Origin: a virus
Length of the DNA stretch: 64,000 nucleotides
Virus record (IMG/VR): IMGVR_UViG_3300032401_000001
Location: 32,001-96,000 of that record
Direction: 5' to 3' (one strand)
The notes under the pieces were generated by a model. It saw only the letters and a list, made by a program, of their open reading frames with translations, searched no databases and was not told the origin of the DNA. Below, one piece after another: positions 33,669 through 56,649 of the stretch. The translations under genes and the position numbers were made by a program. Within the stretch, counting starts at the first letter, position 1, and every line of letters begins with the position of its first letter.

Positions 33669-34088
33669 ATGCGCTGCGCCGAGTGTCCGCTGAGCCTGGC
33701 GTGCTGGAGTGGCCACCTCGGCGTCACTCGAGCCCGCCCAGAACTGTGTCCGCGTTGTAAACGCTTCGTCGTAGCAGTAGTCCCCGATGCCGGAGAGATT
33801 GATGAAGGCGTTGGTGGGTTGTGGTACGCCCTGAAGTGCGAACAGCGTCCGTTCGACCGGGCTATGAATCGGCGCTGGCAGCAGCTGATGAAGAAGCAAC
33901 GCGAAGAGATGGCACGAACCCGTCAACAAGCGCACATAATTCCTCGAACGACGGAGGACCCCGTCAACCGGTTGCCCATGGGCTTGGTCCTCGGTGAATG
34001 CGTCATCTGCAGCGGCTGGGTGGCGCGCTGGAACGGCAAGTATATCGACCTCGACGAAGTCGCCCAGGCGGCCTTGGAGGACGCATGA
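33669..34088 (+). CDS. C8 (CxxCPxSLxC) family paralogue 1
   Basis: MRCAECPLSLAC...CPRC...LKC...CVIC. Confidence 0.75.
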   Translation: MRCAECPLSLACWSGHLGVTRARPELCPRCKRFVVAVVPDAGEIDEGVGGLWYALKCEQRPFDRAMNRRWQQLMKKQREEMARTRQQAHIIPRTTEDPVNRLPMGLVLGECVICSGWVARWNGKYIDLDEVAQAALEDA

Positions 34089-34273
34089 AGAAGGACATCT
34101 CGGTGAAAGGTGAGACATACCAACGCCTGCAACGTGAAGCCAAGCAGCGGGGGGTCAGCGTCACCGCGCTCGTGGCGGACATCGTGCATCGCTTCTTCCA
34201 CGGCGGCGCGGCCCCGAAGGTATCGAAGAAGGCACCGGCGTCCTCGCCGCCGGCGATGCCGACGACGTTCTGA
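34085..34273 (+). CDS. Ribbon-helix-helix DNA-binding protein
   Basis: 'KDISVKGETYQRLQREAKQRGVSVTALVADIV'; coupled both sides. Confidence 0.7.
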   Translation: MKKDISVKGETYQRLQREAKQRGVSVTALVADIVHRFFHGGAAPKVSKKAPASSPPAMPTTF

Positions 34274-34578
34274 TGATCGCGCTCCGCACCGCGGCTGACT
34301 GCCAGTACTGCCCCTACTCGCTGATCTGCCTCGGTGAAGCGTGGACGCCATCGATGCGCCGTGAAGCGCGACTGCGCCAGTGCATGAGCTGCCACGCCAT
34401 GTTCTTCAACGTCGGCCACCGGACGTACATCTGCGGAGTTTTTCGGCAGCGCAACACTGAGGTGCAGCACGTGTACATCACTACGCAGCGGTGTCATGGT
34501 CGTCGTAGTGACGGTCGGATATACGCCGAGAACTGCTTCGAGCTCTATCAGAACCACCTAGAGAAACCCCACTCCTAG
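34273..34578 (+). CDS. C8 family paralogue 2 (degenerate last CxxC)
   Basis: DCQYCPYSLIC...CMSC...YIC. Confidence 0.7.
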   Translation: MIALRTAADCQYCPYSLICLGEAWTPSMRREARLRQCMSCHAMFFNVGHRTYICGVFRQRNTEVQHVYITTQRCHGRRSDGRIYAENCFELYQNHLEKPHS

Positions 34579-34593
34579 AGAAGGAAACCCCCG

Positions 34594-34896
34594 ATGATCG
34601 CATTCAACATTGACCTCGGCAAACTGCGTGGCTTCTCGCACGACCCGTTGGCCTTCATGACGGGCTTCGTGCACGGCTACCGAGAAGGCACGGAGAAGCC
34701 GGGCAACACGGTCGATCAGACCCTCGACAAGGACGAACCCCCGGTAACGCTCGACAGCCAAGGACAGATCTTGGCCAAGGAGTACCTCCGCGGCCGCCGA
34801 CTGGGTGTCGCGGTCCTGGAGAAGCGGCGCCCGATGCCGAAGTGGGCGCACCCCAGCAACGGCACCGGTGGAAAGGGCAAGACCCGATGCCTGTGA
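34594..34896 (+). CDS. Hypothetical protein
   Basis: SD GAAGGA. Confidence 0.6.
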   Translation: MIAFNIDLGKLRGFSHDPLAFMTGFVHGYREGTEKPGNTVDQTLDKDEPPVTLDSQGQILAKEYLRGRRLGVAVLEKRRPMPKWAHPSNGTGGKGKTRCL

Positions 34897-35081
34897 GCTA
34901 CGTTGGGATTCGTGCCGGCCGAACCTTCGAAACATGGCTCGAAGAAGTTCACCGTCATCTCAGTGAAAAGCTTACTGAAGCAGACGTGACGAAGCTCCTT
35001 GCTCGTCAACCTCTGTGGGACTACTGGAGTAGCCAGTATTCTCCTAGTGATGCTGCTGACGACATGACGCCGGAGGAGTGA
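34887..35081 (+). CDS. Small hypothetical protein
   Basis: Overlaps previous stop; lower GC. Confidence 0.5.
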   Translation: MPVSYVGIRAGRTFETWLEEVHRHLSEKLTEADVTKLLARQPLWDYWSSQYSPSDAADDMTPEE

Positions 35082-35082
35082 C

Positions 35083-35502
35083 ATGCCGAAGCCGAAGAAA
35101 GCGACGCCGTTTCGTCTCACCCTCGATGTCGACGTGGAACTGAATGGCCTGAAGCCGGCCGACATGCTCGCCGAACTGGAAGCGGCCGCGAAACACCTCT
35201 TCGACGAAGGCCTCATCACCAACGAAACACCGGCGGAGGTCACGCGCTGGACCACCGCAGTCGTTGCTGATCCGCCCCACGAGTTGGCGCCATTGCTGGA
35301 GTACGCACGGGCACTCGAAGCTCTCGAAGAATTCGTCGACACTGTCAACGCCACGGGCGGTGTCTTCATTGACCGTAAGGGACTGACCTGTCCCCGTGGC
35401 GACGAAGAGTGGTGTGATTTGGGCACCGCGTACCTCAAGGCTTGCACCATGCTGAAACGCAGACCCAAGCTCGATCGGAGCTACCATGGCGAGACTCCGT
35501 AG
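35083..35502 (+). CDS. Hypothetical protein
   Basis: SD GGAGGAG. Confidence 0.65.
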   Translation: MPKPKKATPFRLTLDVDVELNGLKPADMLAELEAAAKHLFDEGLITNETPAEVTRWTTAVVADPPHELAPLLEYARALEALEEFVDTVNATGGVFIDRKGLTCPRGDEEWCDLGTAYLKACTMLKRRPKLDRSYHGETP

Positions 35503-35755
35503 CGACTACGAACTCATCGAGCTCATGCAGACCAAGATGTTCTTCGTCGAAGATGAGACGCTGAGCACCGCTGAGAAGAAGCTCGAGCGCATCCACTACT
35601 TCATCGACGCCTACAACGACACCAACCAGGACACCGTCGAGTTCGCCCCAGAGCTGAAGATCGTCGTCGAGCGCATCCTCGACGGTAAGCGCCCGGTGAA
35701 GCTGCACTACCTCACGGACTTCGAAGGAGAAGCTGAGCCCGCCACTCCGCCATGA
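35486..35755 (+). CDS. Hypothetical protein
   Basis: High GC3, coupled. Confidence 0.65.
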   Translation: MARLRSDYELIELMQTKMFFVEDETLSTAEKKLERIHYFIDAYNDTNQDTVEFAPELKIVVERILDGKRPVKLHYLTDFEGEAEPATPP

Positions 35756-36093
35756 CCTGCGAGACCTGCCCCGACACCATTCTGTGCTGGCAGAATCAAC
35801 TTCGTCGACGGCAGTGCTGGTACTGCAAGCGCTGGGAAGTGGCGTCCTACGATCAGCCGTGGGCTAAGATCGCCGACCGACTCAGTAGCACCACGGCGAG
35901 CGTAATCGCAGCTCACCGGCACATCCACGTCCGCGCTTGCCCTGACGCGGTCGGTGCTTCACGTAGTCTAGTAGAAGGTGACCCGTCGAGGTTCTATAAG
36001 ATGGGTACCATCTGTAGCGCGTGTCGCCGGAAGTACCGCTACACCTCGCGCGGTGAGATAGCGCACGCAGCCACGTACGTCTACGACGACTGA
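35752..36093 (+). CDS. C8 family paralogue 3
   Basis: MTCETCPDTILC...CWYC...RAC...CSAC. Confidence 0.75.
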   Translation: MTCETCPDTILCWQNQLRRRQCWYCKRWEVASYDQPWAKIADRLSSTTASVIAAHRHIHVRACPDAVGASRSLVEGDPSRFYKMGTICSACRRKYRYTSRGEIAHAATYVYDD

Positions 36094-36102
36094 GGAGGTC
36101 TC

Positions 36103-36291
36103 ATGAAGCTCAGGCGCACCCTCCCTCCCACCGTGATGGCGCAGATGCGCCGGGACGGAGCGACGCTGGCGGAGATTGCCGCAGTCGCACACATAGGTAG
36201 AGAACGAGTTCGCCAGCTGGTGAATCTCGTAAGGAGGCGCGGTTCACGCGCCTCCCATCGTTTCGATCCCAGAGCCAAGGTGTCGCGATGA
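36103..36291 (+). CDS. Small sigma-70 region-4-like HTH protein
   Basis: SD GAGGAGG; 'TLAEIAAVAHIGRERVRQL'. Confidence 0.65.
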   Translation: MKLRRTLPPTVMAQMRRDGATLAEIAAVAHIGRERVRQLVNLVRRRGSRASHRFDPRAKVSR

Positions 36292-36560
36292 AGATGAAGC
36301 TCGCCGTCCTACTCTTCAACCACAGCGCCGGAACCGACGTGCTAGTGCACCCGGTACCTGACGCTTGGACCTCTGACCAAGCGATTGCCTACGCCCGCTG
36401 CGAGCTCGAAGAGCAGTACGGCAAGGACGACATCGCTTACACGCTGCAACACCACGGCGACATCGAACACCGGCTCTTCCTCGACGAGAAGGGCTACTGT
36501 GCCTTCAACCATGCCGACGGATTGAGCGAGAAGTTCAGCGTTCAACTGGTGCCACGATGA
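36288..36560 (+). CDS. Hypothetical protein
   Basis: Coupled both sides. Confidence 0.6.
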   Translation: MKMKLAVLLFNHSAGTDVLVHPVPDAWTSDQAIAYARCELEEQYGKDDIAYTLQHHGDIEHRLFLDEKGYCAFNHADGLSEKFSVQLVPR

Positions 36561-36889
36561 AGACCAAGCGGCGCAAACGACGCAAGCCACTGACGTTTCT
36601 TCAAATCGACGATCTGCGTCACGACATCCTCAAGTGCGTGCACGCGGCGCTCGATCCCGACGACGCTGAGGAGTGGCTGACGGAGTACCTCGAGCCCCTG
36701 GTGCAGGAACGAGCCGAAGTGGAGATCGAGAATGTCAACATCGCGGGTCCCGAAGCGCAGCTCGAGTACCTCCTCAAAGGGTACAACGGGCCGCAGTTCG
36801 AGAAGATCTTCAAAGACCTCCGGCGGGAGCTCCATACCAACCCTGCGCAGAAGCCCGACCCGGCGCGACCCGTACGAGGTCATGGCTGA
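36557..36889 (+). CDS. Hypothetical protein
   Basis: Coupled both sides. Confidence 0.6.
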   Translation: MKTKRRKRRKPLTFLQIDDLRHDILKCVHAALDPDDAEEWLTEYLEPLVQERAEVEIENVNIAGPEAQLEYLLKGYNGPQFEKIFKDLRRELHTNPAQKPDPARPVRGHG

Positions 36890-37037
36890 GCTGTCGCGGC
36901 CCCAGCTGCACGATCTCGTGCGTGAGATCTACGACCTGCTGTGGATTCCTCCCGCCAACGACTGGAACCCTGACACCGTCGACGAAATCGGCCAAGCGCT
37001 GATCAAGCGGGGCATCCATCCGCGCGAGGACCACTGA
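36882..37037 (+). CDS. Small hypothetical protein
   Basis: SD GAGG; 'DLLW...WNPDTVDEIGQAL'. Confidence 0.55.
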   Translation: MAELSRPQLHDLVREIYDLLWIPPANDWNPDTVDEIGQALIKRGIHPREDH

Positions 37038-37038
37038 C

Positions 37039-37389
37039 ATGGCGCGGGTAGTGCGCTGCCAGGGCTGCCCGGGGCTGTGCTGCAAGGCTTTCGACGCCAT
37101 CGTGCTCGCACCTGGAGATGCGTCGCGCCTGGCCAAGTTCCTGAAGTTGTCGATGCGGGTCTTCGACCACCGCTACCTCGAGCATGAAACCCCGTTCAGT
37201 TTGCTCACCCGAATCATCGATGGTTGGGGACAAGATGGACCGCGCACGTTCATCCAGATCAGCCGCATCGCGTGTCCGTTCTTGCTGCCAACAGGGCGTT
37301 GCCGCGTCTACGCGGCGCGGCCGCGGGCCTGCCGCGTCTTCAAGCCTGGCAACCACTATTGCCGCCAACTGCGAAGGGAGCGTACGTAA
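37039..37389 (+). CDS. YkgJ-family Zn/Fe-chelating Cys-cluster protein
   Basis: 'CQGCPGLCC' and 'CPFL..GRC.VY..RP..CR.F'. Confidence 0.85.
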   Translation: MARVVRCQGCPGLCCKAFDAIVLAPGDASRLAKFLKLSMRVFDHRYLEHETPFSLLTRIIDGWGQDGPRTFIQISRIACPFLLPTGRCRVYAARPRACRVFKPGNHYCRQLRRERT

Positions 37390-38449: not shown

Positions 38450-38643
38450 TGCCCTGCGAAGCGGTCATCGACCTGCGACGACCCGTCCGCTCCGAGAAGC
38501 GGCGGGGCTTCCAGCCGCCTTGGTACACCGTGTACGTCTACCAGTGCCCCACCTGCCAGCGTGAAGTCACGGTGCGCGCCGGCAGCTTCCGGGGCCGCCG
38601 GCCGGAGCCCGGCGTCGGCGGCATTCGCTGCGGCGGACCATGA
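38449..38643 (+). CDS. Small Zn-ribbon protein
   Basis: 'YQCPTC...IRC'; TGATG coupling. Confidence 0.6.
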   Translation: MPCEAVIDLRRPVRSEKRRGFQPPWYTVYVYQCPTCQREVTVRAGSFRGRRPEPGVGGIRCGGP

Positions 38644-39065
38644 TCTGCGAGAAGTGCCCAGTCGCCCTGCTGTGCTTCGCCGACACGCTCGACGTGCGCT
38701 ACTGCACCCGCTGCAAAGGCCTGGTCTGCGGCGTCCCCAGCGACGATGAACGTGGCGTCAATCTATACTTGCGCATCATCGTGACGGTGCGCTGCACGCA
38801 GTACCATCTCGTACACCCCGACAAAGTTCGCCGGACGGCGCCAGCGATGACCAACTTCGACGGCTGTATCCGCTGCGATCCCATTGGTCACGCAAACACC
38901 GCGGAATTCTCACGCAGCGTCGATCACTACCACCACGGGCGTGACGGCAGCGTCTTGGGCTTCTCGCACGCCAAGTGGTGCAAGCGCGAGCGCTGGTGGT
39001 TGTACCGTGACAGCGATGAAGCGTCGCTGGGCTTCTACCTGCCCCGGCCGGTAGAGGCGCCATGA
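38640..39065 (+). CDS. C8 family paralogue 4
   Basis: MICEKCPVALLC...CTRC...VRC...CIRC. Confidence 0.75.
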   Translation: MICEKCPVALLCFADTLDVRYCTRCKGLVCGVPSDDERGVNLYLRIIVTVRCTQYHLVHPDKVRRTAPAMTNFDGCIRCDPIGHANTAEFSRSVDHYHHGRDGSVLGFSHAKWCKRERWWLYRDSDEASLGFYLPRPVEAP

Positions 39066-39292
39066 ACGACTGTGGCACCTGTCCGGCGGCGTTGTTGTGC
39101 CTGGCAAGCGACTACATCCACACCAGCTGTCAACAGTGTGGTTGCGGGGTGCATATTGACCCCTACTGCGACACGGTACTGCTTGTGCGAGAAGCGTGCT
39201 GCCAAACGCTGATAGGACGCTGGGTCTGGGGTCCTTGCTGCAGCACGAATCCCGCGTGGCAGCGCTGGAAGGTCATCGATGCCCGCACCTGA
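39062..39292 (+). CDS. C8 family paralogue 5 (short, degenerate)
   Basis: MNDCGTCPAALLC...CQQC. Confidence 0.7.
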   Translation: MNDCGTCPAALLCLASDYIHTSCQQCGCGVHIDPYCDTVLLVREACCQTLIGRWVWGPCCSTNPAWQRWKVIDART

Positions 39293-39722
39293 GCCGAAGA
39301 ACGACTGCGGCACCTGTCCCTGGTCGCTGCTCTGTCTCGGCGACGGGTTGCTCTTCAATCGCTGCCATAACTGCCTGCGCGTCTTCCTGATGGATGGCAC
39401 CGCCCGTGCAGTATACTATCCCCCTTACGACGATCGGAACCTACTCCACAATGAAGACACGATCGAAGGTCTCGCGTACAGCTGTCCGGCGTGCCTCCCG
39501 GAGAAGTGGCTCGGCTGGCAAGTCGGCTGTGACTTCCAAGAAACGCCCGGCCTCGCGCAGCGCCGTGAAGCAGCCAGTTTCTGGGCGGGGTACCGCAAAG
39601 GTGAAGACCTCCTACGACTTTGCCGGCCTGGCGGAGAAGCTCGAAGCGCTGTCGCTGTGCTGGCATCTCCCGGCGCCGGATGCTCCAGCGCAGCTGGTGG
39701 CGCCCAGCGGACTCGAAGCTGA
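39279..39722 (+). CDS. C8 family paralogue 6 (C-terminus overlaps next gene)
   Basis: NDCGTCPWSLLC...CHNC...CPAC. Confidence 0.65.
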   Translation: MPAPEPKNDCGTCPWSLLCLGDGLLFNRCHNCLRVFLMDGTARAVYYPPYDDRNLLHNEDTIEGLAYSCPACLPEKWLGWQVGCDFQETPGLAQRREAASFWAGYRKGEDLLRLCRPGGEARSAVAVLASPGAGCSSAAGGAQRTRS

Positions 39723-39996
39723 AATCGTCAATAGCGGCGGCAACGCCTTACTGGCGCTCCTGGCCGATGGCGTCACGAATCGGCTGCGGCGCGCCGGGGT
39801 AAAGCGCAGCCACTGGATGGGCTACCTCGTGGCCAAGGCGTTGATCAACCTGGCGCTGGGCATCGCCCAGAGCGATCACATCCCCCGTGAAGTGGTGACC
39901 GGCATCTTCGCCCACGCCCTCGACGAGATCGAGTTGCCGTACCTGCGGCAGGTCATGCAGCCGCTGGGCAGCCCCCGCCAGCGCGACCGCAACTAG
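39601..39996 (+). CDS. Hypothetical protein
   Basis: Likely GTG start VKTSYDF; helical content. Confidence 0.5.
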   Translation: MKTSYDFAGLAEKLEALSLCWHLPAPDAPAQLVAPSGLEAEIVNSGGNALLALLADGVTNRLRRAGVKRSHWMGYLVAKALINLALGIAQSDHIPREVVTGIFAHALDEIELPYLRQVMQPLGSPRQRDRN

Positions 39997-42476: not shown

Positions 42477-42764
42477 ATGGCGTGTGAGACCTGCCCCGTT
42501 GCGCTCATCTGCTTCGGGGCGGGTACTTTTCACGCCTACGAGTGCGCCTGTGGCCGCCTGAGCTTCATAGAGTATTTTCCGGCGTATGAGAAGTACGAAG
42601 CGGAAGAGGACTTCGATCTGCGCCCGCTGATTCACGTCGTCTGGTGTCCGACGCCCCAGCAATGCGGACGTCGGCGCCACACGGCGGGCTGTCCTCACTG
42701 CAAACCCGAGGAGTGGCGCAACTCGAACAACCGCCGTGTGAAGTTCACGGACCACACGAAATGA
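42477..42764 (+). CDS. C8 family paralogue 7
   Basis: MACETCPVALIC...CAC...VWC...CPHC. Confidence 0.75.
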   Translation: MACETCPVALICFGAGTFHAYECACGRLSFIEYFPAYEKYEAEEDFDLRPLIHVVWCPTPQQCGRRRHTAGCPHCKPEEWRNSNNRRVKFTDHTK

Positions 42765-43198
42765 CCTGTGACCGCTGCCCGCTCTCGTTGATCTGCTTCG
42801 CCGGAGAGCTCGACAATCGGATCTACGCTTGCCACAAGTGCCAGACCGGCGTCATGCTGCCAGACTTCTGGCGCTGGTACTTCTGGCGCTGTCCGGAGCA
42901 GCATCGACCGGACGGGATCGCCGGACTCTGTGTCGAATGCGACCCACTGCATTGGGACGACCGACCCGGCCGCTTGGCAGTCGTCCGTAACCGGGACTGT
43001 ACCGACAGCCGGCGACACAAGAAGTGGCGCAGTCGGTTGGCGCGCCAGGCGACCCATCAGCGCCGCGAGCGAGAAGCAGATAAAGTCGAAAAGCAGCGCT
43101 TGAAAGAACTGGCGTGGGGAACCCAAGCACAACGTTCAGCACCACGTCGTGTAGCCAAGAAGCAAGATCGTCCGGGACGGAGGTACAAGCACCTATGA
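42761..43198 (+). CDS. C8 family paralogue 8
   Basis: MTCDRCPLSLIC...CHKC...WRC...CVEC. Confidence 0.75.
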   Translation: MTCDRCPLSLICFAGELDNRIYACHKCQTGVMLPDFWRWYFWRCPEQHRPDGIAGLCVECDPLHWDDRPGRLAVVRNRDCTDSRRHKKWRSRLARQATHQRREREADKVEKQRLKELAWGTQAQRSAPRRVAKKQDRPGRRYKHL

Positions 43199-43491
43199 CC
43201 TGCGACCACTGTGAACTGTCGCTGATGTGCCTCAGTGGCAACGTCGACGAGTCGGTGCGATTGAAATTGTGCCTCATCTGTGGCCGCGTCTGGCTTCCGG
43301 GGATGAACGTCTTCCGTTGTGCGGCACCGATGCAGCTGTCTACAGCCCTTGCACATCGCCTGACGCAGCTCTTCAGTCCGCGCGGCTGTGACATCTGTGG
43401 GCCGCATGCGCAGCAGCACCTACGCAGCGGCGTACCCATCATCAAGACAGTGTACTTCGACCTGGATGACCACGATCTGCACAGCGCCTAG
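43195..43491 (+). CDS. C8 family paralogue 9
   Basis: MTCDHCELSLMC...CLIC...FRC...CDIC. Confidence 0.75.
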   Translation: MTCDHCELSLMCLSGNVDESVRLKLCLICGRVWLPGMNVFRCAAPMQLSTALAHRLTQLFSPRGCDICGPHAQQHLRSGVPIIKTVYFDLDDHDLHSA

Positions 43492-43986: not shown

Positions 43987-44303
43987 TCGTCGACGCACGG
44001 ACTCGCGAGCTCTTCCAGCGCATCGGTGAAGCCCGCATCCGCCAGCTGCCTATCCTGCTCAGCCCCGATGATCTCGAGACCCTCATCAACGTCGTGCAGC
44101 AGCAGATGGCGGATTTCAACCAAGCCAAGGATCTCGCTGAGGCGTCGAATCAGATCATCGAAAGCTACAAGCAGCTGCTCGAGGAGAGCAAAGCTCGCGA
44201 AGCTACGCTGCGCACCATCGCTGAAGAGACCGTCGAGATCGCCAAGCGGCTCGGCAACACCCCTACATTCGAGATGCTGTACAAGCCGGTGGGCAAGGCG
44301 TGA
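43983..44303 (+). CDS. Coiled-coil hypothetical protein
   Basis: Heptad-rich, coupled both sides. Confidence 0.65.
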   Translation: MIVDARTRELFQRIGEARIRQLPILLSPDDLETLINVVQQQMADFNQAKDLAEASNQIIESYKQLLEESKAREATLRTIAEETVEIAKRLGNTPTFEMLYKPVGKA

Positions 44304-44596
44304 CCTGCGCGGAGTGTCCCTACTCGCTGCGTTGCCTCATGGACGATCTGCAGCGACAACAGTGTCGCTACTGCAGTCGAGTGGTAGTGATGATCGAACC
44401 GCCTCAGATGTTCGACGTGATGCGTGGTGAGTACGTTGACCAAGAAGAGTGGCCGGGGCACTTCGCGCTGATCCGCTGTCCTTCACCTGCGTACGAACAC
44501 GCTGGGGTCGTCACCATGGGCTGCGCCGTGTGCTGCCCCACCGACCCATTGTGGACGGACGTCGGCATCACCATCGAGGACCTCAGTGACCTGTGA
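44300..44596 (+). CDS. C8 family paralogue 10
   Basis: MTCAECPYSLRC...CRYC...IRC...CAVC. Confidence 0.75.
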   Translation: MTCAECPYSLRCLMDDLQRQQCRYCSRVVVMIEPPQMFDVMRGEYVDQEEWPGHFALIRCPSPAYEHAGVVTMGCAVCCPTDPLWTDVGITIEDLSDL

Positions 44597-44936
44597 CCGT
44601 TGCCCCTACTCGTTGCTCTGCCTCCGCGGCCAGCCGCGCCGGCGCTGCAAAGGGCGCTGCGGCCGCACCATGCTGATCCTCAGCATCTCCACGTTCCACT
44701 TCAACGAATGGCGGGTGCGCGACCTGAGCGGCGAGACGCTCACGGCCATTGGCCAGATGGTGCCCGAGACGATCCAGGGACACGCAGTGTTGCTTCGCTG
44801 CCCCCACGAACGGCGGGCGCCGGTAGCCGAGTACCGCTGGTGTCCTCACTGCATCGTTTCGTTGGGGAACCGCATCAACGAAGACGACCGACACGTCTGG
44901 GACGATACCGACGTCGAGGATCTCGGTGATCTGTAG
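44586..44936 (+). CDS. C8 family paralogue 11
   Basis: MTCDRCPYSLLC...CKGRC...LRC...CPHC. Confidence 0.75.
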   Translation: MTCDRCPYSLLCLRGQPRRRCKGRCGRTMLILSISTFHFNEWRVRDLSGETLTAIGQMVPETIQGHAVLLRCPHERRAPVAEYRWCPHCIVSLGNRINEDDRHVWDDTDVEDLGDL

Positions 44937-45273
44937 CGAGTGCCCGTTCTCGCTGGTCTGCCTCAGCGGCGCGCAATACCAGCAGTACTGTGTGGCCTGT
45001 CGTTGCCTCATCGTGCAGATCCCGCGCGAGCACGGACGTATCGAACTGGCGACGCTGATGTGTGAACCATTGCTCGACGGTACTCGTCCCTTCAACGTGC
45101 GCGAGCACTCACAGATGCGCTTTTCCCCAGCCAGCTTCTGTTGTCGCTGCTATCCGCAGAACTACAACTTCGATCCCTCGCCCGCCTGTCGTCGCGAAGT
45201 CGTCCACTACGTCGCGACGCAGGCGTTCACGCACAAGCAGTGGCGGTACTTCCGCCGAGGGAAGAAGGCATGA
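44926..45273 (+). CDS. C8 family paralogue 12
   Basis: MICSECPFSLVC...CVAC...LMC...CCRC. Confidence 0.75.
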   Translation: MICSECPFSLVCLSGAQYQQYCVACRCLIVQIPREHGRIELATLMCEPLLDGTRPFNVREHSQMRFSPASFCCRCYPQNYNFDPSPACRREVVHYVATQAFTHKQWRYFRRGKKA

Positions 45274-45656
45274 AGTGCGCTACGTGTCCGCTGTCGCTAC
45301 TGTGCCTGAGCGACCACCTCACCGAGTACTCCGAAGCGTGGATCGGCATGGTGGGGTCCGTGTGCACGCGCTGCGGGCGTTTCTCGACGCGTCCTGACGA
45401 GTCCAGCGGCATCTACATCTTCCACTGCGAACGCCGCTCGCCGGCGGTGATCACCGACGCCTACATCATCGGAGCCACGATTCGCGTGGGCGTGCCTTCA
45501 GTCGCGTCTGACCCCCAGGCCAAAGACGTCAAGCTGCCCGACTGGTTTCGTGATCCGGTGACTGGGCGGCGTTTGATGCGCACCATGCCAACGGGTTGTC
45601 TCCACTGTCGCGGTGAAACCCAACATGGCCCGACGCGGATCGAGGTGCTCGATTGA
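45270..45656 (+). CDS. C8 family paralogue 13
   Basis: MKCATCPLSLLC...CTRC...FHC...CLHC. Confidence 0.75.
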   Translation: MKCATCPLSLLCLSDHLTEYSEAWIGMVGSVCTRCGRFSTRPDESSGIYIFHCERRSPAVITDAYIIGATIRVGVPSVASDPQAKDVKLPDWFRDPVTGRRLMRTMPTGCLHCRGETQHGPTRIEVLD

Positions 45657-45904
45657 CCTGTGGCGAGTGTCCCCTGTCGCTGTTGTGCTTCAGCGAACTG
45701 GTCACCGAGAACGACGTAGCTATCTGCGACGACTGCAAACGGGTCATCATGTACGACGCCCGTGACAGCACCAACGCAATCTTCGCGTGTGCTAACCCCG
45801 CGCAGCTGGAATGCGCCATCGCCGCCGGCCGGGTGCACCGCCGTAGCGATTGTGAGTACGTCGCGTGCCACGACTGCTTGCGAAAGGCCATGAACCATGG
45901 CTGA
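45653..45904 (+). CDS. C8 family paralogue 14
   Basis: (TTG)TCGECPLSLLC...CDDC...FAC...CHDC. Confidence 0.75.
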   Translation: MTCGECPLSLLCFSELVTENDVAICDDCKRVIMYDARDSTNAIFACANPAQLECAIAAGRVHRRSDCEYVACHDCLRKAMNHG

Positions 45905-46208
45905 GTTCGAAATCACCTGTGCGCGTTGCAACGCGAAGATCGAGCACGTCTGCCACGAAGAGCTGCGGCAGTGGTTGGTGCGCATGCTGCGCATCCAGAT
46001 CGCGGCGCCCCGCGGCTTCAAGTCCTCACCGTTCTACTCGAAGGGGGACGAGAAAGCCCCGTTCTACACCGAAGCCTTCTTGTACTCCCTCCTGGGGAAA
46101 GAAGATGGCCGCACCATCTGCTACTCCTTCGAGCGGCTCATCCAGCTGTGCGGGTACGACCCAGTGCAGCTAATGCACGAAGCCGAAGCGGCGACCAACA
46201 AGAAGTGA
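45897..46208 (+). CDS. Hypothetical protein
   Basis: 'EAFLYSLLGKEDGRT'; coupled both sides. Confidence 0.7.
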   Translation: MAEFEITCARCNAKIEHVCHEELRQWLVRMLRIQIAAPRGFKSSPFYSKGDEKAPFYTEAFLYSLLGKEDGRTICYSFERLIQLCGYDPVQLMHEAEAATNKK

Positions 46209-46549
46209 CCTGCGATCGTTGCCCCATCTCGCTGCTGTGCTTCGGCGGGTCGATTCCGCCCGACATCATCTACCGCTGCGCTGCTTGCCGCGGCATCAAC
46301 TTCGAGCTGGGAAGCAATCGGCGCAGCTACTTCCGGTGCGATCGACTGCAGCTGCGCGAAGCGTACAAGCACACGCGGCAGCGTCGGCAGAGCTGCCTGC
46401 ATTGCAGCATGTCGATGGTCGTCTTCTATGACCACGAACACGGCAAACGCGTGCTCTACGAACGCCGCAAGCCTGGCGCCCGGTTGAAGCTGCACGCGTT
46501 CGAGACCGGAGCCCACTTGCCCCGGATACCGCCCTCCCCGGAGCCGTGA
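46205..46549 (+). CDS. C8 family paralogue 15
   Basis: (GTG)TCDRCPISLLC...CAAC...FRC...CLHC. Confidence 0.75.
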   Translation: MTCDRCPISLLCFGGSIPPDIIYRCAACRGINFELGSNRRSYFRCDRLQLREAYKHTRQRRQSCLHCSMSMVVFYDHEHGKRVLYERRKPGARLKLHAFETGAHLPRIPPSPEP

Positions 46550-46836
46550 TGAAGTGCGAACAGTGCCCCATCTCACTGCTCTGTCTCGGGGGTCCGATCT
46601 CCCGCCACGCTGCGACCTACTGTAACGTCTGCAAGTGCGTCGTGGTGCGCCGCTTCAACTACGCCCACAGACATAACGAACCCCTGAGCATCGTCGACCG
46701 ACGCTTCCCTTGTCGCGAGGAGGCGGCGCAGTTGCACCTGACGCACGTCCCGTGTCACATCTGTCGAGGACAACGTCGCCATCAACGACACCAGGCGCAG
46801 CGCCAGCGACGGTTGCAGCCCAAGAAACATCGATAA
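46549..46836 (+). CDS. C8 family paralogue 16
   Basis: MKCEQCPISLLC...CNVC...FPC...CHIC. Confidence 0.75.
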   Translation: MKCEQCPISLLCLGGPISRHAATYCNVCKCVVVRRFNYAHRHNEPLSIVDRRFPCREEAAQLHLTHVPCHICRGQRRHQRHQAQRQRRLQPKKHR

Positions 46837-48520: not shown

Positions 48521-48796
48521 ATGACCAAAATCAAGAAGGCCAAGCTGACGCCGCCTGACCCCAAGCGCTGCCAGGCCGAATGGCGCGGCGGGTCTTTCAT
48601 GACTCTCGGACCTCGACAGATGGAGCGCTGCGAAGACCCACCGGTCGTCATCGTCAAGGAGCTGAAATCCAGCGAGAAAGATGGGCAGTGCGGCGCGATG
48701 AGCCTGTGCCCCGCCTGCCTCACCAAGTTCCTGGCGATGGCCCAGAAGGAAGGCCGCGGCGCGAACTACGAGTTCACGGCCGTCCCCGCGTCGTGA
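48521..48796 (+). CDS. Small Zn-finger-like protein
   Basis: 'RCQA...RC...MSLCPAC'. Confidence 0.65.
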   Translation: MTKIKKAKLTPPDPKRCQAEWRGGSFMTLGPRQMERCEDPPVVIVKELKSSEKDGQCGAMSLCPACLTKFLAMAQKEGRGANYEFTAVPAS

Positions 48797-49065
48797 CCTG
48801 CGACCGCTGCCCCGTCGCGCTGCTCTGCTTGGGCGACCAGCTGCCTACCTCACGGGGGAAGTGCCGCGTCTGCGGTTGCACGGTGGTGGTGCTGGAGAAC
48901 AATCACGAGACTGGTCGTGGTCGCGTCACGCTGCTGCGTTGCCCACCGGAACGCGATGCTGAGCTGGGACAACCGTGGGAAAGCTGCCACCGTTGCATGG
49001 ACGTACGGCAGAGGTGGCTGCTCCACGTCGATCGAACCGACATCGAGGATCTCCGTGACCTGTGA
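48793..49065 (+). CDS. C8 family paralogue 17
   Basis: (GTG)TCDRCPVALLC...CRVC...LRC...CHRC. Confidence 0.75.
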   Translation: MTCDRCPVALLCLGDQLPTSRGKCRVCGCTVVVLENNHETGRGRVTLLRCPPERDAELGQPWESCHRCMDVRQRWLLHVDRTDIEDLRDL

Positions 49066-49315
49066 CCACTGTCCGGTGAGCCTGTGCTGCCTCGGTGACC
49101 GGCTGCACCTCTACAGCATCTGCCCTCGCTGTGAACGCGTAGTCATTCAACTCCACGAGCAGGTGCGCGCTCAGCCACCCTACGGTGACTACCTGGTGCT
49201 GCGCTGCGAAACTCTACGGCAGCACGGCAGTGTCAATCAACTGGGGGCCGGTTGTCCCCTGTGTCAGCCCGGCACCTTCGGCTGGGAGAAGAACCATATC
49301 GAAGTGCTGGAGTAA
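49055..49315 (+). CDS. C8 family paralogue 18
   Basis: (GTG)TCDHCPVSLCC...CPRC...LRC...CPLC. Confidence 0.75.
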   Translation: MTCDHCPVSLCCLGDRLHLYSICPRCERVVIQLHEQVRAQPPYGDYLVLRCETLRQHGSVNQLGAGCPLCQPGTFGWEKNHIEVLE

Positions 49316-49321
49316 CCGCGG

Positions 49322-49681
49322 ATGACCTGCGACCAGTGCCCGATTTCACTGCTCTGTCTCGGGAACCAGCTCGCGCTGCACGGTCAGACGGGCATGGTGT
49401 GCTTCCACTGCTGGCGCTTCTTCACCGCCTTCGGTGAATGTACCTACGCCCTGCATTGTGAACCCCGCACACAACGTCGTCACCAGCATCGGCACTACCA
49501 CTTCGCCGAAGACCCGCAGGATCACCACGCTCAGCTTCAATACAGCAGTTGTCACCTGTGTGGCCCAGCGCCAGGACGACCGATCTACGACATCTGGGGG
49601 TACGACGACCACGGCGTCGCCACACTGCTCTACCAGGTGCCACGACCCGGTGACTGGGGCTACCACTCGAGGTTCCTATGA
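49322..49681 (+). CDS. C8 family paralogue 19
   Basis: MTCDQCPISLLC...CFHC...LHC...CHLC. Confidence 0.75.
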   Translation: MTCDQCPISLLCLGNQLALHGQTGMVCFHCWRFFTAFGECTYALHCEPRTQRRHQHRHYHFAEDPQDHHAQLQYSSCHLCGPAPGRPIYDIWGYDDHGVATLLYQVPRPGDWGYHSRFL

Positions 49682-50306: not shown

Positions 50307-50310
50307 GGCT

Positions 50311-50622
50311 ATGGCTTGCGCCGAATGTCCCCTGTCGCTGCCGTGCTTCAGTGGTCACCTGGCACTCAAGGATCTCGGGATCTGCTACCACTGTCGCAGT
50401 GTCGTGCTCTACGACCAGAACTGGAATCAAGTGACGCGGCACGGCTGCGGCAATCTGGCGCAGCTGGAGCGCGCGTTGCAGCGTCCCTACGTGCCGACCA
50501 CGCTCATGAACATCGATCGGCACGAAATCTACGAGTACTCGGTGCTCTGTCAGGAGTGCCGCGCTCAAGGCCGACGCTCGACGCTGGATTTGATCTTCGA
50601 GGCTGAACAGAAAATACTATGA
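50311..50622 (+). CDS. C8 family paralogue 20
   Basis: MACAECPLSLPC...CYHC...HGC...CQEC. Confidence 0.75.
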   Translation: MACAECPLSLPCFSGHLALKDLGICYHCRSVVLYDQNWNQVTRHGCGNLAQLERALQRPYVPTTLMNIDRHEIYEYSVLCQECRAQGRRSTLDLIFEAEQKIL

Positions 50623-51074
50623 CCAGCACCTGCGCGACCTGTCCGCTATCGTTGCAGTGCTTCAGCGGTCACCTCGAAGCTCGCAGCGTCGGGTTGTGCT
50701 TCCACTGCGGCAGCGTGGTGATGTTCGTCGGGGCTGCTCTCAACGTCACCATGCTCACCGGGCAGACGATCACGCGGCGCCACGAGATCGACACGCACCG
50801 CTGCCATAACCCGCTGCAGTTCCTGGATGCCGTGCAATACCCGGTCAGCTACTTTAAGGACAGCAGTCTCTTCGGCGTCCCGCAGTTGATGCCGATCAGG
50901 TTTGATCCGCCGCTCATGTGGCCCGACGTCAGTGAGATCGCCGTGATCTGCACGGCGTGCCGGGAAGCTCACCAGCAGGAAGAGCGACGCCAACGACCAC
51001 GACTCATTCTGCCACGACGATTGTCACAGCCACTGCCATGGCCACTGGTGTTGACTCCCACTGGTGCCAAGTGA
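50619..51074 (+). CDS. C8 family paralogue 21
   Basis: MTSTCATCPLSLQC...CFHC...HRC...CTAC. Confidence 0.75.
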   Translation: MTSTCATCPLSLQCFSGHLEARSVGLCFHCGSVVMFVGAALNVTMLTGQTITRRHEIDTHRCHNPLQFLDAVQYPVSYFKDSSLFGVPQLMPIRFDPPLMWPDVSEIAVICTACREAHQQEERRQRPRLILPRRLSQPLPWPLVLTPTGAK

Positions 51075-51352
51075 CGTGTGACCAGTGCCCGCTGTCGCTC
51101 AGCTGCTTCAGTGGCTACGCCCTGGCGAGCGCGGAGCACTGTGCTCGTTGTAAGCACTGGCGCGTGATCCTCTGCCCCATCGGAGACCTGCGCGACGTGC
51201 GCCAGGCGAAGTTCTACTTCGTTGAGTGCCCTGAAGACGGACCGTGGCAGTCGCTGAGACCCACGACGCTGCGGGAATGGTGGTGCCTCGAATGTGATCC
51301 GGCGCACTATGATCGGCTACTGCCGGATCGTTATCCCGTGCTACTGAGGTGA
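51071..51352 (+). CDS. C8 family paralogue 22
   Basis: (GTG)TCDQCPLSLSC...CARC...VEC...CLEC. Confidence 0.75.
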   Translation: MTCDQCPLSLSCFSGYALASAEHCARCKHWRVILCPIGDLRDVRQAKFYFVECPEDGPWQSLRPTTLREWWCLECDPAHYDRLLPDRYPVLLR

Positions 51353-52454: not shown

Positions 52455-52462
52455 CGCTCCGG

Positions 52463-52493
52463 CGCTCACCACCCGGTGAGCGTCGTGTTCTTT
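52463..52493 (+). terminator. Possible intrinsic terminator
   Basis: 8-bp stem CGCTCACC/GGTGAGCG right after stop, followed by TCGTGTTCTTT (weak U tract). Confidence 0.35.
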
Positions 52494-52504: not shown

Positions 52505-52565
52505 CGCGCCGCAGTCTCGGTATAAGAAGATGTTCCCGAACCCCACGCTCACGAAAGGAGCGGCG

Positions 52566-52808: not shown

Positions 52809-52815
52809 CGGGGCT

Positions 52816-55566
52816 TCAGTTGGTGGCGGCGTCGGCGTCGTCTTCACGAGACGCCGGCGTTTGTTTAGCTGGCAGCTTCGCCGCCGCCTTAGCGAGGGCG
52901 ATGACGATGGGCCGCCAGGAGCGGCGGGTGTAGTCGCGGGGCAGCTCGATCGCGAGCAAAGCGGCGTCGGGTAGTCGCCGCGCGAAGCGCAGCGGCGGGG
53001 GCGGCACCCGCGGATTGAAGCCGAACTGCTGGTGCAGCTTCAGCGCCCGGGCGAGGCCGTAGCTGAGAATCAAGCGGCGCGCCGTGGCATCGTCGAGTGG
53101 CAGCGAGTGGGCGACGTGCTGGACTTCACCGATGGTGGTGATGAGACAACGCTCCAGGCCGGCGATGAGCGCGTGGGACGGGGGGAACAACGGTGCCAGG
53201 TAGCGCCGCAAGGTCCGCAGCCGCGGGGTCCAGGTATCGTCATCGCGGCCCAGGTAGCGCGCCAGACTACTGCGGATCGTCGGGTCCAGCGCCGGGAACT
53301 GCTGGTAGCTGGTCAGCAGCGTGTGGTCTTGCCATGGTGTCCAACGCTGACGCTCGACTTCTTCATCGGGCATGGCCGGCAGGTCACCGAGAACGACGCA
53401 TTCTGGCTCCGGCGTCACTGTAGCTGCGGCCAACGGCCAGACTCCCAGCGGACCGACACCGCCTTCATCAGCGGTTTCGGGATAGCACAGCACGTGGCGA
53501 CAGAAGCGTGCCCAGGCCAGCACGTAGGCGGCCATGCCCTGATAGTTCTCGCGATAGGCGCGATCTTCATCGCGATGCACAGACTCGGTGCTGTTCACAG
53601 CAGCTTGGACGGCGTCACCCGCGCTGGGGAGTCCATCAGCTTCGGTGTCCTGCAACGCCCGCATGCTAGAACGGGCGTGCTGTTCGAAGCTGGCGATGGC
53701 CAGCTCGGTGAAGAAGTGGCGTTCTTCGATGGTCGGGTCTGAGGTCTGTTCTTTGCCGTCGGGGATGACCACGTGGACGATGCGCCGGTAGTCGTTGGGG
53801 TTGGGCATCTGCTGCTCCGGCGCTCGCACGACCCCGTGGTGGTACCACATGCGGCCGTCCATGCCGGTCTCACGGTTGTGCGCATCAGCGCGCTGCTTAC
53901 CCAGCAATCGACGCTGATACGTGCTGATCTTACCTGTGACCTCATAGGCGCTGCGCACGCCCGCCTTGGCGTAGGCCAGCAGCTGCTGGTCAGTGGCTTC
54001 TTGCAGTACTTCAGCGCGGTCCATCTGGCGCACGTAGGCGACGCGCTCCGCGTCACTGCCCAGCGCCGCCATGAGGTGCTCGCTCTCGAAGAGGTGGCGC
54101 TCGAGCAGCACCTTGCGCCAGACGAAGCGCTCACAGTCAGGGGCGTCAGCCAAGCTCGGGGGGCGGGTGAAGGTCCACTGCCCACGGCTGCGCACGGCGT
54201 AGATGTTCTCGACGTGGTCGTTGTCGAACCACCACGGACACGGCGCCCGGTCCGTGCCGGGTTGATTGCGTTGCAGCTTCAACTGCGTGCGCAACGGCTC
54301 TTCGACGAAGTCATCGAGCCAATCCGCGGGGCGAAAGCGCAGCACCCGCACGTGGACCTGCGAGGGCGTCGGGGGATGACCGAGCTGTTCGGTCTCGACC
54401 CGCCGGCGAATGCGCTGGCGCACGCGCTGCTGTTGTAGCTGGAGATGTTGGAGGTGCCAGGCGCCTTTGAAGAGACCTGGTTCTCGCAACAGCATCAGCG
54501 GATCGATAAGCGTGCAGTTCTGGGGCAGCCCATGCTCGTTGAAGTCGAGCAAGCGGCTTTCGAGAGCCAACTCGAGACCCGGAGACGGCAACTCGCGACC
54601 GAAGAGGCGCCGCACTTGCACTACATCGAGCGCCGGCAGCCCCGCAGCGATGCTGCAGTACTTCGGCAACTCGCGGAGCATGCGATCAACGTCCGACGGC
54701 GCCGGCACACAGTCGGTGAAGAACGACGTGGTGCGGCCCCGGTGCAGCGGGCTTTCCCGCAACCCCAGCCGTTGGTACAGCCGGCGCCGAGCGATCTCGA
54801 CGCTCTCATTGCGTTCGAGCGCATCGAGCTGCCGCAGGTGGCGGGGCCAGTACGGCGATGCGGCGAAACGCCGCCAGTTGACGATGAAGCAGCCGGTGCG
54901 CACGAAGTCGACGCCGATCTCGTGCGGGTCGAAGTTCAAGACGTGCCGCTCGCAGAGGGTGTGCCAGGCGTAGAAGAGCGCCACCAGGGGCGCCGGCAGC
55001 GCCGCGCTGTGTGGCAGGAACTCGCTGAGATCGAGCGGCGGCCGGACGATGACCCGCTGGAGGAATTTCTCCTGGTGATCGGAGATGCGGCGGAAGACGG
55101 TGTAGTTGTCCGGGTCGTGCAACGCCGGGTCGCCGTGCAACGCGGGGTCCAGGACGGAGTAGGTGTGGATGGCACTGATAGCCTCGGGCGCGTTCCCCGG
55201 CAGCTGCAGCGGCCCCAGGAGCGCCTCAGCCCGCTTGCGGAGGTGCTGGAGCCACCACGCCTGCGCTTCGTCGGCCAGCGCGGCAGTGGGCGCGAACAGG
55301 AAGCCTTGCTGAAGCAGGTCGCGCTCCATCTCGACCGGCGTGTAGAGCGCCGCGCTGAGCTTGCGCCAGCTGCGCGGGTTCTCGAGGAGGTGGGGCCAGT
55401 AGATGAGGCCCAGGTTGCGCTCGGCAGAGAGCCAGCGTCCAGACGGCCCGGCCTGCGGAATACCGTAGCTGGCGTTGCGCACGTGCTGAAGTAGTCCGTA
55501 CAATGCACGCGTGTGCGAGGAGACACTTGTGAGTGTATCGCTGGGAAAGCGAGAATAATCACGCAT
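52816..55566 (-). CDS. 916-aa protein of unknown function, lone antisense gene
   Basis: Long open frame; ATG at 55566 has SD AAGGAG at 6 nt; no recognisable catalytic motif. Confidence 0.75.
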   Translation of the reverse strand: MRDYSRFPSDTLTSVSSHTRALYGLLQHVRNASYGIPQAGPSGRWLSAERNLGLIYWPHLLENPRSWRKLSAALYTPVEMERDLLQQGFLFAPTAALADEAQAWWLQHLRKRAEALLGPLQLPGNAPEAISAIHTYSVLDPALHGDPALHDPDNYTVFRRISDHQEKFLQRVIVRPPLDLSEFLPHSAALPAPLVALFYAWHTLCERHVLNFDPHEIGVDFVRTGCFIVNWRRFAASPYWPRHLRQLDALERNESVEIARRRLYQRLGLRESPLHRGRTTSFFTDCVPAPSDVDRMLRELPKYCSIAAGLPALDVVQVRRLFGRELPSPGLELALESRLLDFNEHGLPQNCTLIDPLMLLREPGLFKGAWHLQHLQLQQQRVRQRIRRRVETEQLGHPPTPSQVHVRVLRFRPADWLDDFVEEPLRTQLKLQRNQPGTDRAPCPWWFDNDHVENIYAVRSRGQWTFTRPPSLADAPDCERFVWRKVLLERHLFESEHLMAALGSDAERVAYVRQMDRAEVLQEATDQQLLAYAKAGVRSAYEVTGKISTYQRRLLGKQRADAHNRETGMDGRMWYHHGVVRAPEQQMPNPNDYRRIVHVVIPDGKEQTSDPTIEERHFFTELAIASFEQHARSSMRALQDTEADGLPSAGDAVQAAVNSTESVHRDEDRAYRENYQGMAAYVLAWARFCRHVLCYPETADEGGVGPLGVWPLAAATVTPEPECVVLGDLPAMPDEEVERQRWTPWQDHTLLTSYQQFPALDPTIRSSLARYLGRDDDTWTPRLRTLRRYLAPLFPPSHALIAGLERCLITTIGEVQHVAHSLPLDDATARRLILSYGLARALKLHQQFGFNPRVPPPPLRFARRLPDAALLAIELPRDYTRRSWRPIVIALAKAAAKLPAKQTPASREDDADAATN

Positions 55567-55618
55567 CTGGACTCCTTGGACAACGAATCTGAGGACGTTG
55601 AGAATCGCGGTCACCAAC

Positions 55619-55647
55619 ATTAAAAGCGATTGGACACCGAAAGTAAA
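55619..55647 (-). promoter_or_regulatory. Predicted sigma-70-type promoter for the 916-aa gene
   Basis: Minus strand TTTACT-N17-TTTAAT, ~50 nt upstream of the ATG. Confidence 0.4.
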
Positions 55648-56110
55648 GTAGAATCAACGTCACAGGAGTAAAAAACGACGTTCGGGGGCGCTCAACGGTG
55701 GCGAGACTACATATAGAAGGACCTATAAACGAGAAATCGAAGACATAGCGGAGTAGGAGATAGAGGTAAATGTACGCAGTGTAGGTATCGTCCACTTTCA
55801 CCAACCGCGCCGCCCGAACACCGTACAGCAAAGGGATAGTAAGAGGTTGTATTGATAAGTGAATATAAGGAATCATAGCATCTGACCGATGGAACACAGT
55901 GAAGCAAAGGGTCGCGTGTGTGTGAGGTCTCCCCACCGCGCAGCTCAGCTATACAATAACTTCTAAGAGATAAGTATAAGAAATGAGATGAATATAGAAG
56001 AAGCAGTGCAATTAGGATTGAAGACTTCGTAGGAGACACCATACAGTAATAACGAAGAGAACGCTGATTCTCTGCAAACGTAGGTAAATTGCCTCAGTGT
56101 GAGTTAGTGT
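55620..56110. other. AT-rich, A/purine-skewed non-coding region (candidate origin or control region)
   Basis: Abrupt drop in GC versus flanks; lies between divergent genes; plus strand is conspicuously A-rich. Confidence 0.5.
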
Positions 56111-56319
56111 CGTTGTTCAGTGATTCTAGGCAGCTAAGCTCATCGCAGCGGAGCTCACCGCGGCAGGTCAGGGGCCAGTCAGTCTCCACTGTTCGCACAC
56201 CTGGGGGCCGGTGCAGGTGAGGGGGCGCGCGGCGGGTCTTGCCTACCTGTAGTTTTATGTCGTAGAGTTGTAGTGCATCGCTACGTAACGTCACGTGTTG
56301 TCGTGGTACAAGGCTGTCG

Positions 56320-56649
56320 ATGCCCTGCGAGACCTGCTGCTTCAGCCTGCGCTGCTTGGCAGGTGAGGTTCCTTTCGACGAGCGCCTCGATTGCTCCTCG
56401 TGTGACCGTAGCATCTTCGCAGTCTACGAGTCGTGCCACCCGGCGCGCTACTACGTGGCGCACTGCTCACCGAGCATGTACCAGCGCGAGCCGTTGACGG
56501 AAGGTGTGACCCAGTGCCCATTCTGCCGGCCGTGGGACTGGTCGATCGGTCGCGTCTTCGAAGACGTCAGCACTGGTGAGCGGGTTTCGGTTGAACAGCT
56601 GCGAGAACGTCAACCGCTGCCCGCCTACACCTATCGTTTCTTTCGCTGA
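56320..56649 (+). CDS. C8 family paralogue 23
   Basis: MPCETCCFSLRC...CSSC...AHC...CPFC. Confidence 0.7.
   Translation: MPCETCCFSLRCLAGEVPFDERLDCSSCDRSIFAVYESCHPARYYVAHCSPSMYQREPLTEGVTQCPFCRPWDWSIGRVFEDVSTGERVSVEQLRERQPLPAYTYRFFR

Follow-up and report, generated by a model that had tools for sequence, protein, structure and literature searches.

A clade-restricted family of eight-cysteine small proteins forms a 23-gene array in a large uncultured phage

Sets of small cysteine-rich proteins have been described in several genomes. Bacillus phage G carries a zinc-ribbon expansion of about 35 copies, interpreted as specific binders, as transcription factors or as DNA-binding proteins (PMC7824862), and Haloferax volcanii encodes 43–49 C(P)XCG zinc-finger micro-proteins per genome, work on which has shown that not every predicted site binds zinc (PMC10716476, PMC11241148), a caution that holds for the proteins described here too. 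In WhiB1, a member of the WhiB-like (Wbl) iron-sulfur proteins, the ligands of the cluster are C9, C37, C40 and C46 (PMC6282962). Here we describe an array of 23 paralogous genes, members of a family that we name C8, in a 64,000-nucleotide (nt) stretch of virus DNA (the window; bases 32001–96000 of the 197,792-bp IMG/VR virus record IMGVR_UViG_3300032401_000001, judged 100% complete). The original prediction, made from the sequence of the window alone, had described a phage-encoded array of small proteins with a fixed eight-cysteine scaffold and hypervariable loops; that the array is phage-encoded is borne out by the position of the window within a complete phage record. Our searches showed that the eight-cysteine family is real, undescribed and restricted to one clade, and that it resides in large uncultured phages.

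A six-frame search of the window with the pattern C..C.{5}C[LFWIMV] gave 26 matches, of which 23 lie on the plus strand at 33675–56326 and three are isolated and spurious. The 23 correspond one-to-one with the genes predicted earlier (array span 33669–56649). When the window was resampled 60 times under a first-order Markov model, the same pattern occurred 1.2 times on average and at most four times, and a stricter pattern, C..CP..[LIMF].C, was observed 21 times against 0.13 expected, so the array stands far above chance. A family profile search of the genome placed all copies inside the window and none elsewhere, the 24th match being the C-terminal half of member 13. With each gene start taken as the nearest in-frame start codon (ATG in 15 genes, GTG in seven and TTG in one), the genes code for proteins of 76–151 amino acids (aa); together they make up 7,734 nt, or 3.9% of the genome and 34% of the interval. 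The members are listed here (dN/dS, ratio of nonsynonymous to synonymous substitution rates; pI, calculated isoelectric point; HMM, hidden Markov model; overlaps are with the preceding member unless stated).

33669..34088 (+), member 1: 139 aa, ATG start, canonical eight cysteines; orthologues 42–97% identical
34273..34578 (+), member 2: 101 aa; C-x13-C in place of the last CxxC; orthologue in relative G001 94% identical, dN/dS 0.08
35752..36093 (+), member 3: 113 aa; dN/dS 0.13
38640..39065 (+), member 4: 141 aa; start overlaps a preceding small gene by 4 nt; weak, sub-threshold match of the Whib HMM at the N-terminus
39062..39292 (+), member 5: 76 aa, 11 cysteines, degenerate spacing; 4-nt overlap with member 4
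39279..39722 (+), member 6: 147 aa; lone cysteine moved past the last CxxC; 14-nt overlap with member 5
42477..42764 (+), member 7: 95 aa; first knuckle CxC
42761..43198 (+), member 8: 145 aa, pI 10.0, long basic tail; 4-nt overlap
43195..43491 (+), member 9: 98 aa; 4-nt overlap
44300..44596 (+), member 10: 98 aa, GTG start, pI 4.3
44586..44936 (+), member 11: 116 aa, GTG start; first knuckle CxxxC; 11-nt overlap
44926..45273 (+), member 12: 115 aa, GTG start; 11-nt overlap
45270..45656 (+), member 13: 128 aa; without orthologue in any of the three relatives compared
45653..45904 (+), member 14: 83 aa, TTG start; 4-nt overlap
46205..46549 (+), member 15: 114 aa, GTG start
46549..46836 (+), member 16: 95 aa, pI 10.3; 1-nt overlap
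48793..49065 (+), member 17: 90 aa, GTG start; compact reference member
49055..49315 (+), member 18: 86 aa, GTG start; 11-nt overlap
49322..49681 (+), member 19: 119 aa, 12 histidines; begins 6 nt past member 18
50311..50622 (+), member 20: 103 aa
50619..51074 (+), member 21: 151 aa; 4-nt overlap
51071..51352 (+), member 22: 93 aa, GTG start; 4-nt overlap
56320..56649 (+), member 23: 109 aa; cysteine in place of Pro7; isolated beyond a reverse-strand gene of 934 aa

The array proteins share the signature M-x-C-x2-C-P-Φ-S-L-x-C (Φ, hydrophobic), followed by a CxxC, a lone cysteine and a second CxxC. In an alignment of the 23 sequences C3, C6, C12 and C30 are invariant, P7, L10, C27, C57, C111 and C114 are at least 90% conserved, and mean column identity is 15%. 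An architecture check found non-canonical spacing in members 2, 5, 6, 7 and 11, the same five that had been called degenerate or variant before, and the calculated pI of the members ranges from 4.3 to 10.3. Conservation of the motif acts on the protein and not on the DNA, as the original prediction had held: the motif serine is encoded by TCG (13 times), AGC (three) and TCA (two), and identity across the motif is 66% at codon positions 1 and 2 versus 50% at position 3. The sole DNA-level repeats are a motif of about 40–48 nt (60–83% identity) and a 58-nt cassette at gene junctions.

Known families do not account for C8, which the earlier reading had likewise not recognised as a named family. 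A Pfam scan of all 23 members gave only noise-level matches (E 0.1–1, single members), the best PHROG match had E 0.049 and concerned one member only, and NCBIfam gave no match at E ≤ 0.1. A word-indexed search of 5.8 billion proteins returned 17 proteins, all unnamed, and a profile HMM search of metagenome proteins, proposed at the outset as a check, was run exhaustively on 1.84 billion cluster representatives and found 161 clusters at E ≤ 1e-3 (best 1.5e-16). For 150 of these clusters the matches were listed; because all are 79–190 aa long and nearly all align from residue 1, no fused forms were seen among them. C-x2-C-x5-C is present in 160 of the 161 clusters, and the first cysteine is residue 3 in 120 of them. 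The eight-cysteine pattern holds family-wide: across an alignment of 145 sequences seven cysteines never vary and the eighth reaches at least 90% conservation, an alignment of 117 sequences shows no variation at any of the eight, and in both alignments every one of the eight conserved putative ligands is a cysteine. Among 197 sequences, 193 have at least eight cysteines and 177 have a 3+2+1+2 cysteine architecture, with spacers of 6–21, 7–50 and 8–70 residues.

Every cluster that we looked up came from metagenome sources only. In 185,579 species genomes a scan for the motif MTCD[RQH]CPx[SA]L found no relative, although this pattern is narrow and divergent members could be missed; tblastn with member 17 as query gave no match at E ≤ 1 in 50,697 deposited phage records, and phmmer with the 22-aa N-terminal consensus gave none in PDB sequences. 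A feature search of the ESM Atlas returned only unnamed or generic small zinc-ribbon clusters. C8 is a family without a name or a recognisable fold, and no homologue of it was detected in these searches of cultured phages and cellular genomes. Related loci were located with a 7-member sub-alignment, as no stretch is conserved enough in the full alignment.

G001, 130-kb IMG/VR record: about 17 members
L002, 40-kb contig: 11–12 members
L003/L004, 207-kb contig: at least 13 members
L009, 180-kb contig, 57% GC: 12 members in a run and two outliers
L010, 191-kb contig, 56% GC: at least 12 members

Within a 198-kb phage genome the family takes up about 4% of the sequence, and arrays of 12–23 members are found in at least five lineages of large phages; the four lineages other than that of the window have 12–17 members per array.

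Comparison with these relatives shows how the array has evolved. For 20 orthologous pairs dN/dS lies between 0.05 and 0.49, which indicates that the array genes are real coding genes and that their loops are constrained within each orthologue group. Pooled dN/dS is 0.18 for core codons and 0.24 for loop codons; this comparison of core with loops, one of the checks first proposed, points to purifying selection and not to hypervariability. The description of the loops as hypervariable therefore stands between paralogues but fails within orthologue groups, where loop dN/dS is low and no repeat like those of diversity-generating retroelements (DGRs) is seen. DGR target genes were rejected as an explanation, there being no long near-identical direct repeat in 33000–57000 and the loops of orthologues being under purifying selection.

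In a quick maximum-likelihood tree (100 columns, deep branches not resolved), 64 members from four genomes group by orthology and not by genome, many branches having Shimodaira–Hasegawa approximate likelihood-ratio (SH-aLRT) support of at least 95. The 23 rows from the window need 22 label changes on this tree, which means that none of them is a recent in-genome duplicate. Members 13, 19, 21 and 23 have no clear orthologue in any of the three relatives compared, and the only orthologue of member 12 is in L003; members 12–14, 16, 19 and 21 are missing from L002; the cluster of member 23 includes proteins from other contigs. The comparison of gain and loss across related loci, which had also been suggested, therefore reveals a mosaic membership among close relatives. 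Because orthologues are conserved and the tree sorts members by orthology, the radiation of the array is old, with a membership that, judging from these sequences, is still changing by gain, loss and replacement.

The genes are packed closely. At 13 of the 22 junctions, consecutive members overlap by 1–14 nt or sit 6 nt apart, which joins the genes into six runs (members 4–6, 7–9, 10–14, 15–16, 17–19 and 20–22), and at overlapping or near-abutting junctions a Shine-Dalgarno sequence lies inside the tail of the upstream gene. Since stop and start codons overlap within runs, each run is probably translated as a coupled unit. Three junctions carry the 58-nt cassette.

44567..44624 (+), junction of members 10 and 11: repeat family D7; GAGGA in the tail codons 7 nt before the GTG start
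44907..44964 (+), junction of members 11 and 12: 58-nt repeat
49036..49093 (+), junction of members 17 and 18: 58-nt repeat

In the cassette the upstream gene ends in (I/V)-E-D-L-x-D-L-stop, where the Glu-Asp codons provide the GAGGA, the variable residue is an NGT codon, and D-L-stop is, in another frame, the GTG-AYC-TGT (M-T/I-C) of the next gene. Checked at base level, the cassette reads as a built-in junction for translational coupling and, with its ribosome-binding site and start codon in one element, would be a clear example of how tandem paralogues stay translationally coupled. A promoter scan found no sigma-70 promoters beyond chance. An open reading frame (ORF) of 200 aa at 39394–39996 (+) shares nucleotides, in a different frame, with the long tail at the C-terminus of member 6 (39279–39722); because the member 6 orthologue in L002 is only about 86 aa, it is uncertain where member 6 really ends or where the overlapping ORF really begins.

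AlphaFold2 (AF2) models made with family alignments reached a predicted local distance difference test (pLDDT) score of 80 and a predicted template modelling (pTM) score of 0.67 for member 17, and 91.9 and 0.84 for member 1. The order of elements relative to the cysteines is the same in these two divergent members: a coil with the first CxxC, a short helix with the third cysteine, a beta-hairpin with a CxxC knuckle, a strand ending at the lone cysteine, a helix (long in member 1), the second CxxC at a short helix, and a terminal strand. The weak top structural neighbours of the two models are identical as well, and this check on two members agrees with the common fold that had been expected. 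The N-terminus is modelled within the folded core (pLDDT 84–95), so that, of the two roles proposed for it, that of a folding core is favoured over that of a detachable docking tag. Neither Foldseek nor VIA-align matched either model to a known DNA-binding fold or to a RING, PHD or FYVE chain, although absence from these lists does not exclude a cross-brace fold. The RING/PHD/FYVE-type fold originally put forward is not supported by profiles either (PHD_Oberon at E 0.097 and zf-RING_4 at E 0.99, each in one of 23 members), and no histidine is conserved. Profile echoes in the PDB are weak (E 0.07–2) and concern zinc ribbons of RNA polymerase, of eS27 and of an RNA-binding protein; Zn_ribbon_TFIIB matched one member at E 0.68, and the two CxxC knuckles are invariant family-wide. 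Two confident AlphaFold models find no solved relative, which marks C8 out as a good candidate for a novel small fold that binds metal, and on these models the fold is apparently new. An acidic motif in the terminal strand fits only 76 of 263 sequences and is not claimed as a family feature. A complex prediction for members 17 and 18 with four zinc ions (score 0.01, mark 0.32) speaks neither for nor against binding.

We propose that the domain folds compactly as alpha/beta and is held together by two metal sites of four cysteines each. In site A, the invariant N-terminal loop C-x2-C-P-Φ-S-L-x-C would be joined by the lone cysteine at the end of the third strand, and site B would comprise the two CxxC knuckles, one in the beta-hairpin and one at the start of a helix, resembling a zinc ribbon or treble clef. 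We infer this assignment from the predicted topology and from variant subfamilies; in variants of the member 6 type the lone cysteine relocates past the last CxxC while both knuckles stay put. The array represents an old, clade-restricted radiation of one small single-domain family, encoded in the non-structural plus-strand block of phages of about 180–210 kb, with runs of genes probably translated as coupled units. The loops and tail of each paralogue are its own and are maintained by purifying selection, and sets of paralogues differ between close relatives.

As to function, we tentatively favour a repertoire of target-specific binders or regulators, stabilised by metal and active during infection, in which each paralogue would be an adaptor or binder for a different macromolecular target (in host takeover, regulation or counter-defence). 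An AcrVA2-like gene inside the array of one relative counts in favour of this reading. Two observations weigh against it: pairwise dN/dS well below 1 in an old, stable radiation is atypical for fast-evolving arms-race effectors, and long basic tails (pI 10) on several members suit nucleic-acid binding as well as protein binding. The proteins could indeed be sequence-specific or architectural nucleic-acid binders, either transcription factors or proteins coating DNA or RNA. Such an interpretation was given to the phage G expansion (PMC7824862), and it fits the basic members 8, 12, 15 and 16 (pI 9.0–10.3), the Arg/Lys-rich tails on 8 and 16, and the zinc ribbons to which the weak PDB echoes are limited. 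We nevertheless think it unlikely: roughly half of the members have a neutral to strongly acidic pI (4.3–6.9), phage G gp32 shows no relationship to the family (hhalign probability 2%), and neither Pfam nor structure searches detected a known DNA-binding domain or fold. Small, cysteine-rich proteins might also be disulfide-bonded and extracytoplasmic or part of the virion (structural, decoration or secreted peptides), or precursors of ribosomally synthesised and post-translationally modified peptides (RiPPs), and the same block does contain DUF5131 and CxxCxxCC-domain genes. This explanation is very improbable. Signal peptides and lipoboxes were rejected because the motif begins at residue 3, which leaves no hydrophobic leader; paired CxxC knuckles are typical of metal sites; and the block that holds the genes is non-structural, with the tail genes on the other strand. 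RiPP precursors were rejected too, since proteins of 76–190 aa that fold confidently are unlike such precursors, and there is no conserved partner enzyme, the DUF5131 gene being absent from the corresponding position in L002 while the flanking members are kept there.

The identity of the metal at site A opens a further alternative, and the sequences make an iron-sulfur cluster there a serious possibility. If site A held [4Fe-4S] in place of zinc, the paralogues might be Wbl-like switches, each a different one, which would adjust transcription by binding to region 4 of a sigma factor or to RNA polymerase. The loop C-x2-C-P-Φ-x3-C matches the spacing of the Wbl cluster loop, proline included (231 of 263 sequences have C-x2-C-x5-C with proline after the second cysteine), and the N-terminal loop of the family can be aligned with the WhiB-TM4 loop. 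Both consist of three cysteines plus a distal one, which here is able to relocate; histidine never replaces cysteine in the N-terminal motif (0 of 263 sequences); and Wbl proteins are of similar size (81–139 aa). Moreover, the Pfam Whib model matches only the N-termini of members 4 and 21 in this genome, both below threshold, and a stand-alone Sigma70_r4 ORF directly follows member 3, with sigma region 4 genes near the arrays of two other lineages. On the other hand, the best score, that of member 4, is 16.4 bits against a cut-off of 23.6, a level reached in 7 of 14 control genomes, and Whib was not among the Pfam matches of the 23 members at E ≤ 1. The universal G[V/I]WGG turn that comes after the final conserved cysteine in Wbl proteins (PMC6282962) was found by regular expression in 0 of 263 sequences, and hhalign gave a probability of 0.6%; together with the sub-threshold HMM score, these two results led us to reject membership of Wbl/WhiB (PF02467). 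The distal cysteine, furthermore, lies downstream of the loop and not upstream as in the Wbl pattern C-Xn-C-X2-C-X5-C, the predicted fold is alpha/beta with four extra cysteines whereas Wbl is helical (h1–h4 in the WhiB1 structure, PMC6282962), and Wbl is known only from Actinobacteria and their phages. We therefore regard Wbl-like switches as an unlikely alternative. More doubtful still is the specific form in which the 23 paralogues would be analogues of Wbl, each combining a [4Fe-4S] loop with a Cys4 zinc site on a previously unseen alpha/beta fold and docking on sigma region 4 or RNA polymerase, of the host or phage-encoded, so as to reprogramme transcription.

Target-specific binding remains the reading that we prefer, with metal binding and binder function both still inferred. 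If it is right, the array would be a natural library on one mini-scaffold and offer a handle on host takeover by large phages.

The genes around the array set it in a non-structural part of the genome. Upstream, the minus strand carries tail genes (a tail-fibre PHROG, a baseplate wedge and a weak Baseplate_J match), and the plus-strand block shared by the array also encodes a DinG-type helicase and numerous small ORFs without assignment, besides the following.

34085–34273 (+): 62-aa ORF between members 1 and 2, weakly resembling ribbon-helix-helix proteins (RHH_5, E 0.044)
36103–36291 (+): 62-aa ORF directly 3' of member 3, a stand-alone Sigma70 region 4 helix-turn-helix (25.0 bits, cut-off 24.1)
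37039–37389 (+): 116-aa protein with Pfam CxxCxxCC (PF03692, putative zinc- or iron-chelating domain; E 4e-9), conserved in G001 and L002
40539–41387 (+): 282-aa protein between members 6 and 7, in the non-structural block, with collagen triple-helix repeats (PF01391, E 1e-17) and a hydrophobic N-terminal segment
47454–48257 (+): DUF5131 (phage Gp37/Gp68) gene between members 16 and 17
52460..52485 (+): strong hairpin resembling an intrinsic terminator (11 pairs, 8 GC), which closes the long plus-strand block of members 1–22
52816–55620 (-): 934-aa ORF that converges on the end of the plus-strand block, with no match in Pfam, PHROG or the Atlas
58890–60017 (+): 375-aa ORF with a second region 4 match, below threshold (20.3 bits)

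The 62-aa Sigma70_r4 ORF is 93% conserved in L002 and G001, and Sigma70_r4 genes are also found near the arrays of L003 and L010; the full sigma factor of the phage lies outside the window, at genome position 195113–195259 (-), and scores 52.8 bits with Sigma70_r4. The large reverse-strand gene after the array is homologous in the window (934 aa), L003 (870 aa) and L010 (734 aa), with 22–30% identity between lineages, and L009 has a partial homologue about 7 kb beyond its array; across the clade the synteny of array and reverse-strand gene is conserved. In the same distant 180-kb relative, L009, the AcrVA2-like gene (PF26125) lies at 5675–6958, within the region of the family array, and a Cas12f1/TnpB-like gene lies after the array at 12773–14539.

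Among known systems, the CxxC knuckles of C8, one in a beta-hairpin and one before a helix, resemble the classical Cys4 zinc site of zinc-ribbon and treble-clef modules. Wbl proteins (PF02467; PMC6282962) are likewise small and rich in paralogues, have phage-borne examples and share the spacing of a loop plus one distal cysteine. C8 differs from them in lacking G[V/I]WGG, in the downstream position of the distal cysteine, in having four more invariant cysteines and in its predicted alpha/beta fold. If the N-terminal site does hold an iron-sulfur cluster, Wbl-type chemistry would extend beyond the Wbl family as now defined, and Wbl-analogous switches, if true, would amount to a second, independent invention of the Wbl principle in large uncultured phages. 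The haloarchaeal C(P)XCG proteins offer a looser analogy, that of a large set of very small cysteine-motif proteins with diverse and mostly uncharacterised roles in one genome; they are cellular, shorter than 70 aa, usually have one site, and are dispersed and not one homologous family, whereas C8 is one family in tandem phage arrays. The nearest precedent in kind is the zinc-ribbon expansion of phage G, also a large phage with tens of paralogous small, cysteine-rich and presumably metal-binding proteins (PMC7824862). No homology between the two was detected, gp32 of phage G (YP_009015343.1) aligning with C8 over only 14 columns in hhalign, and gp32 has a single four-ligand ribbon in mid-protein. 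C8, by comparison, has eight invariant cysteines, a signature that starts at residue 3 and coupled tandem arrays, and it is found in several phage lineages.

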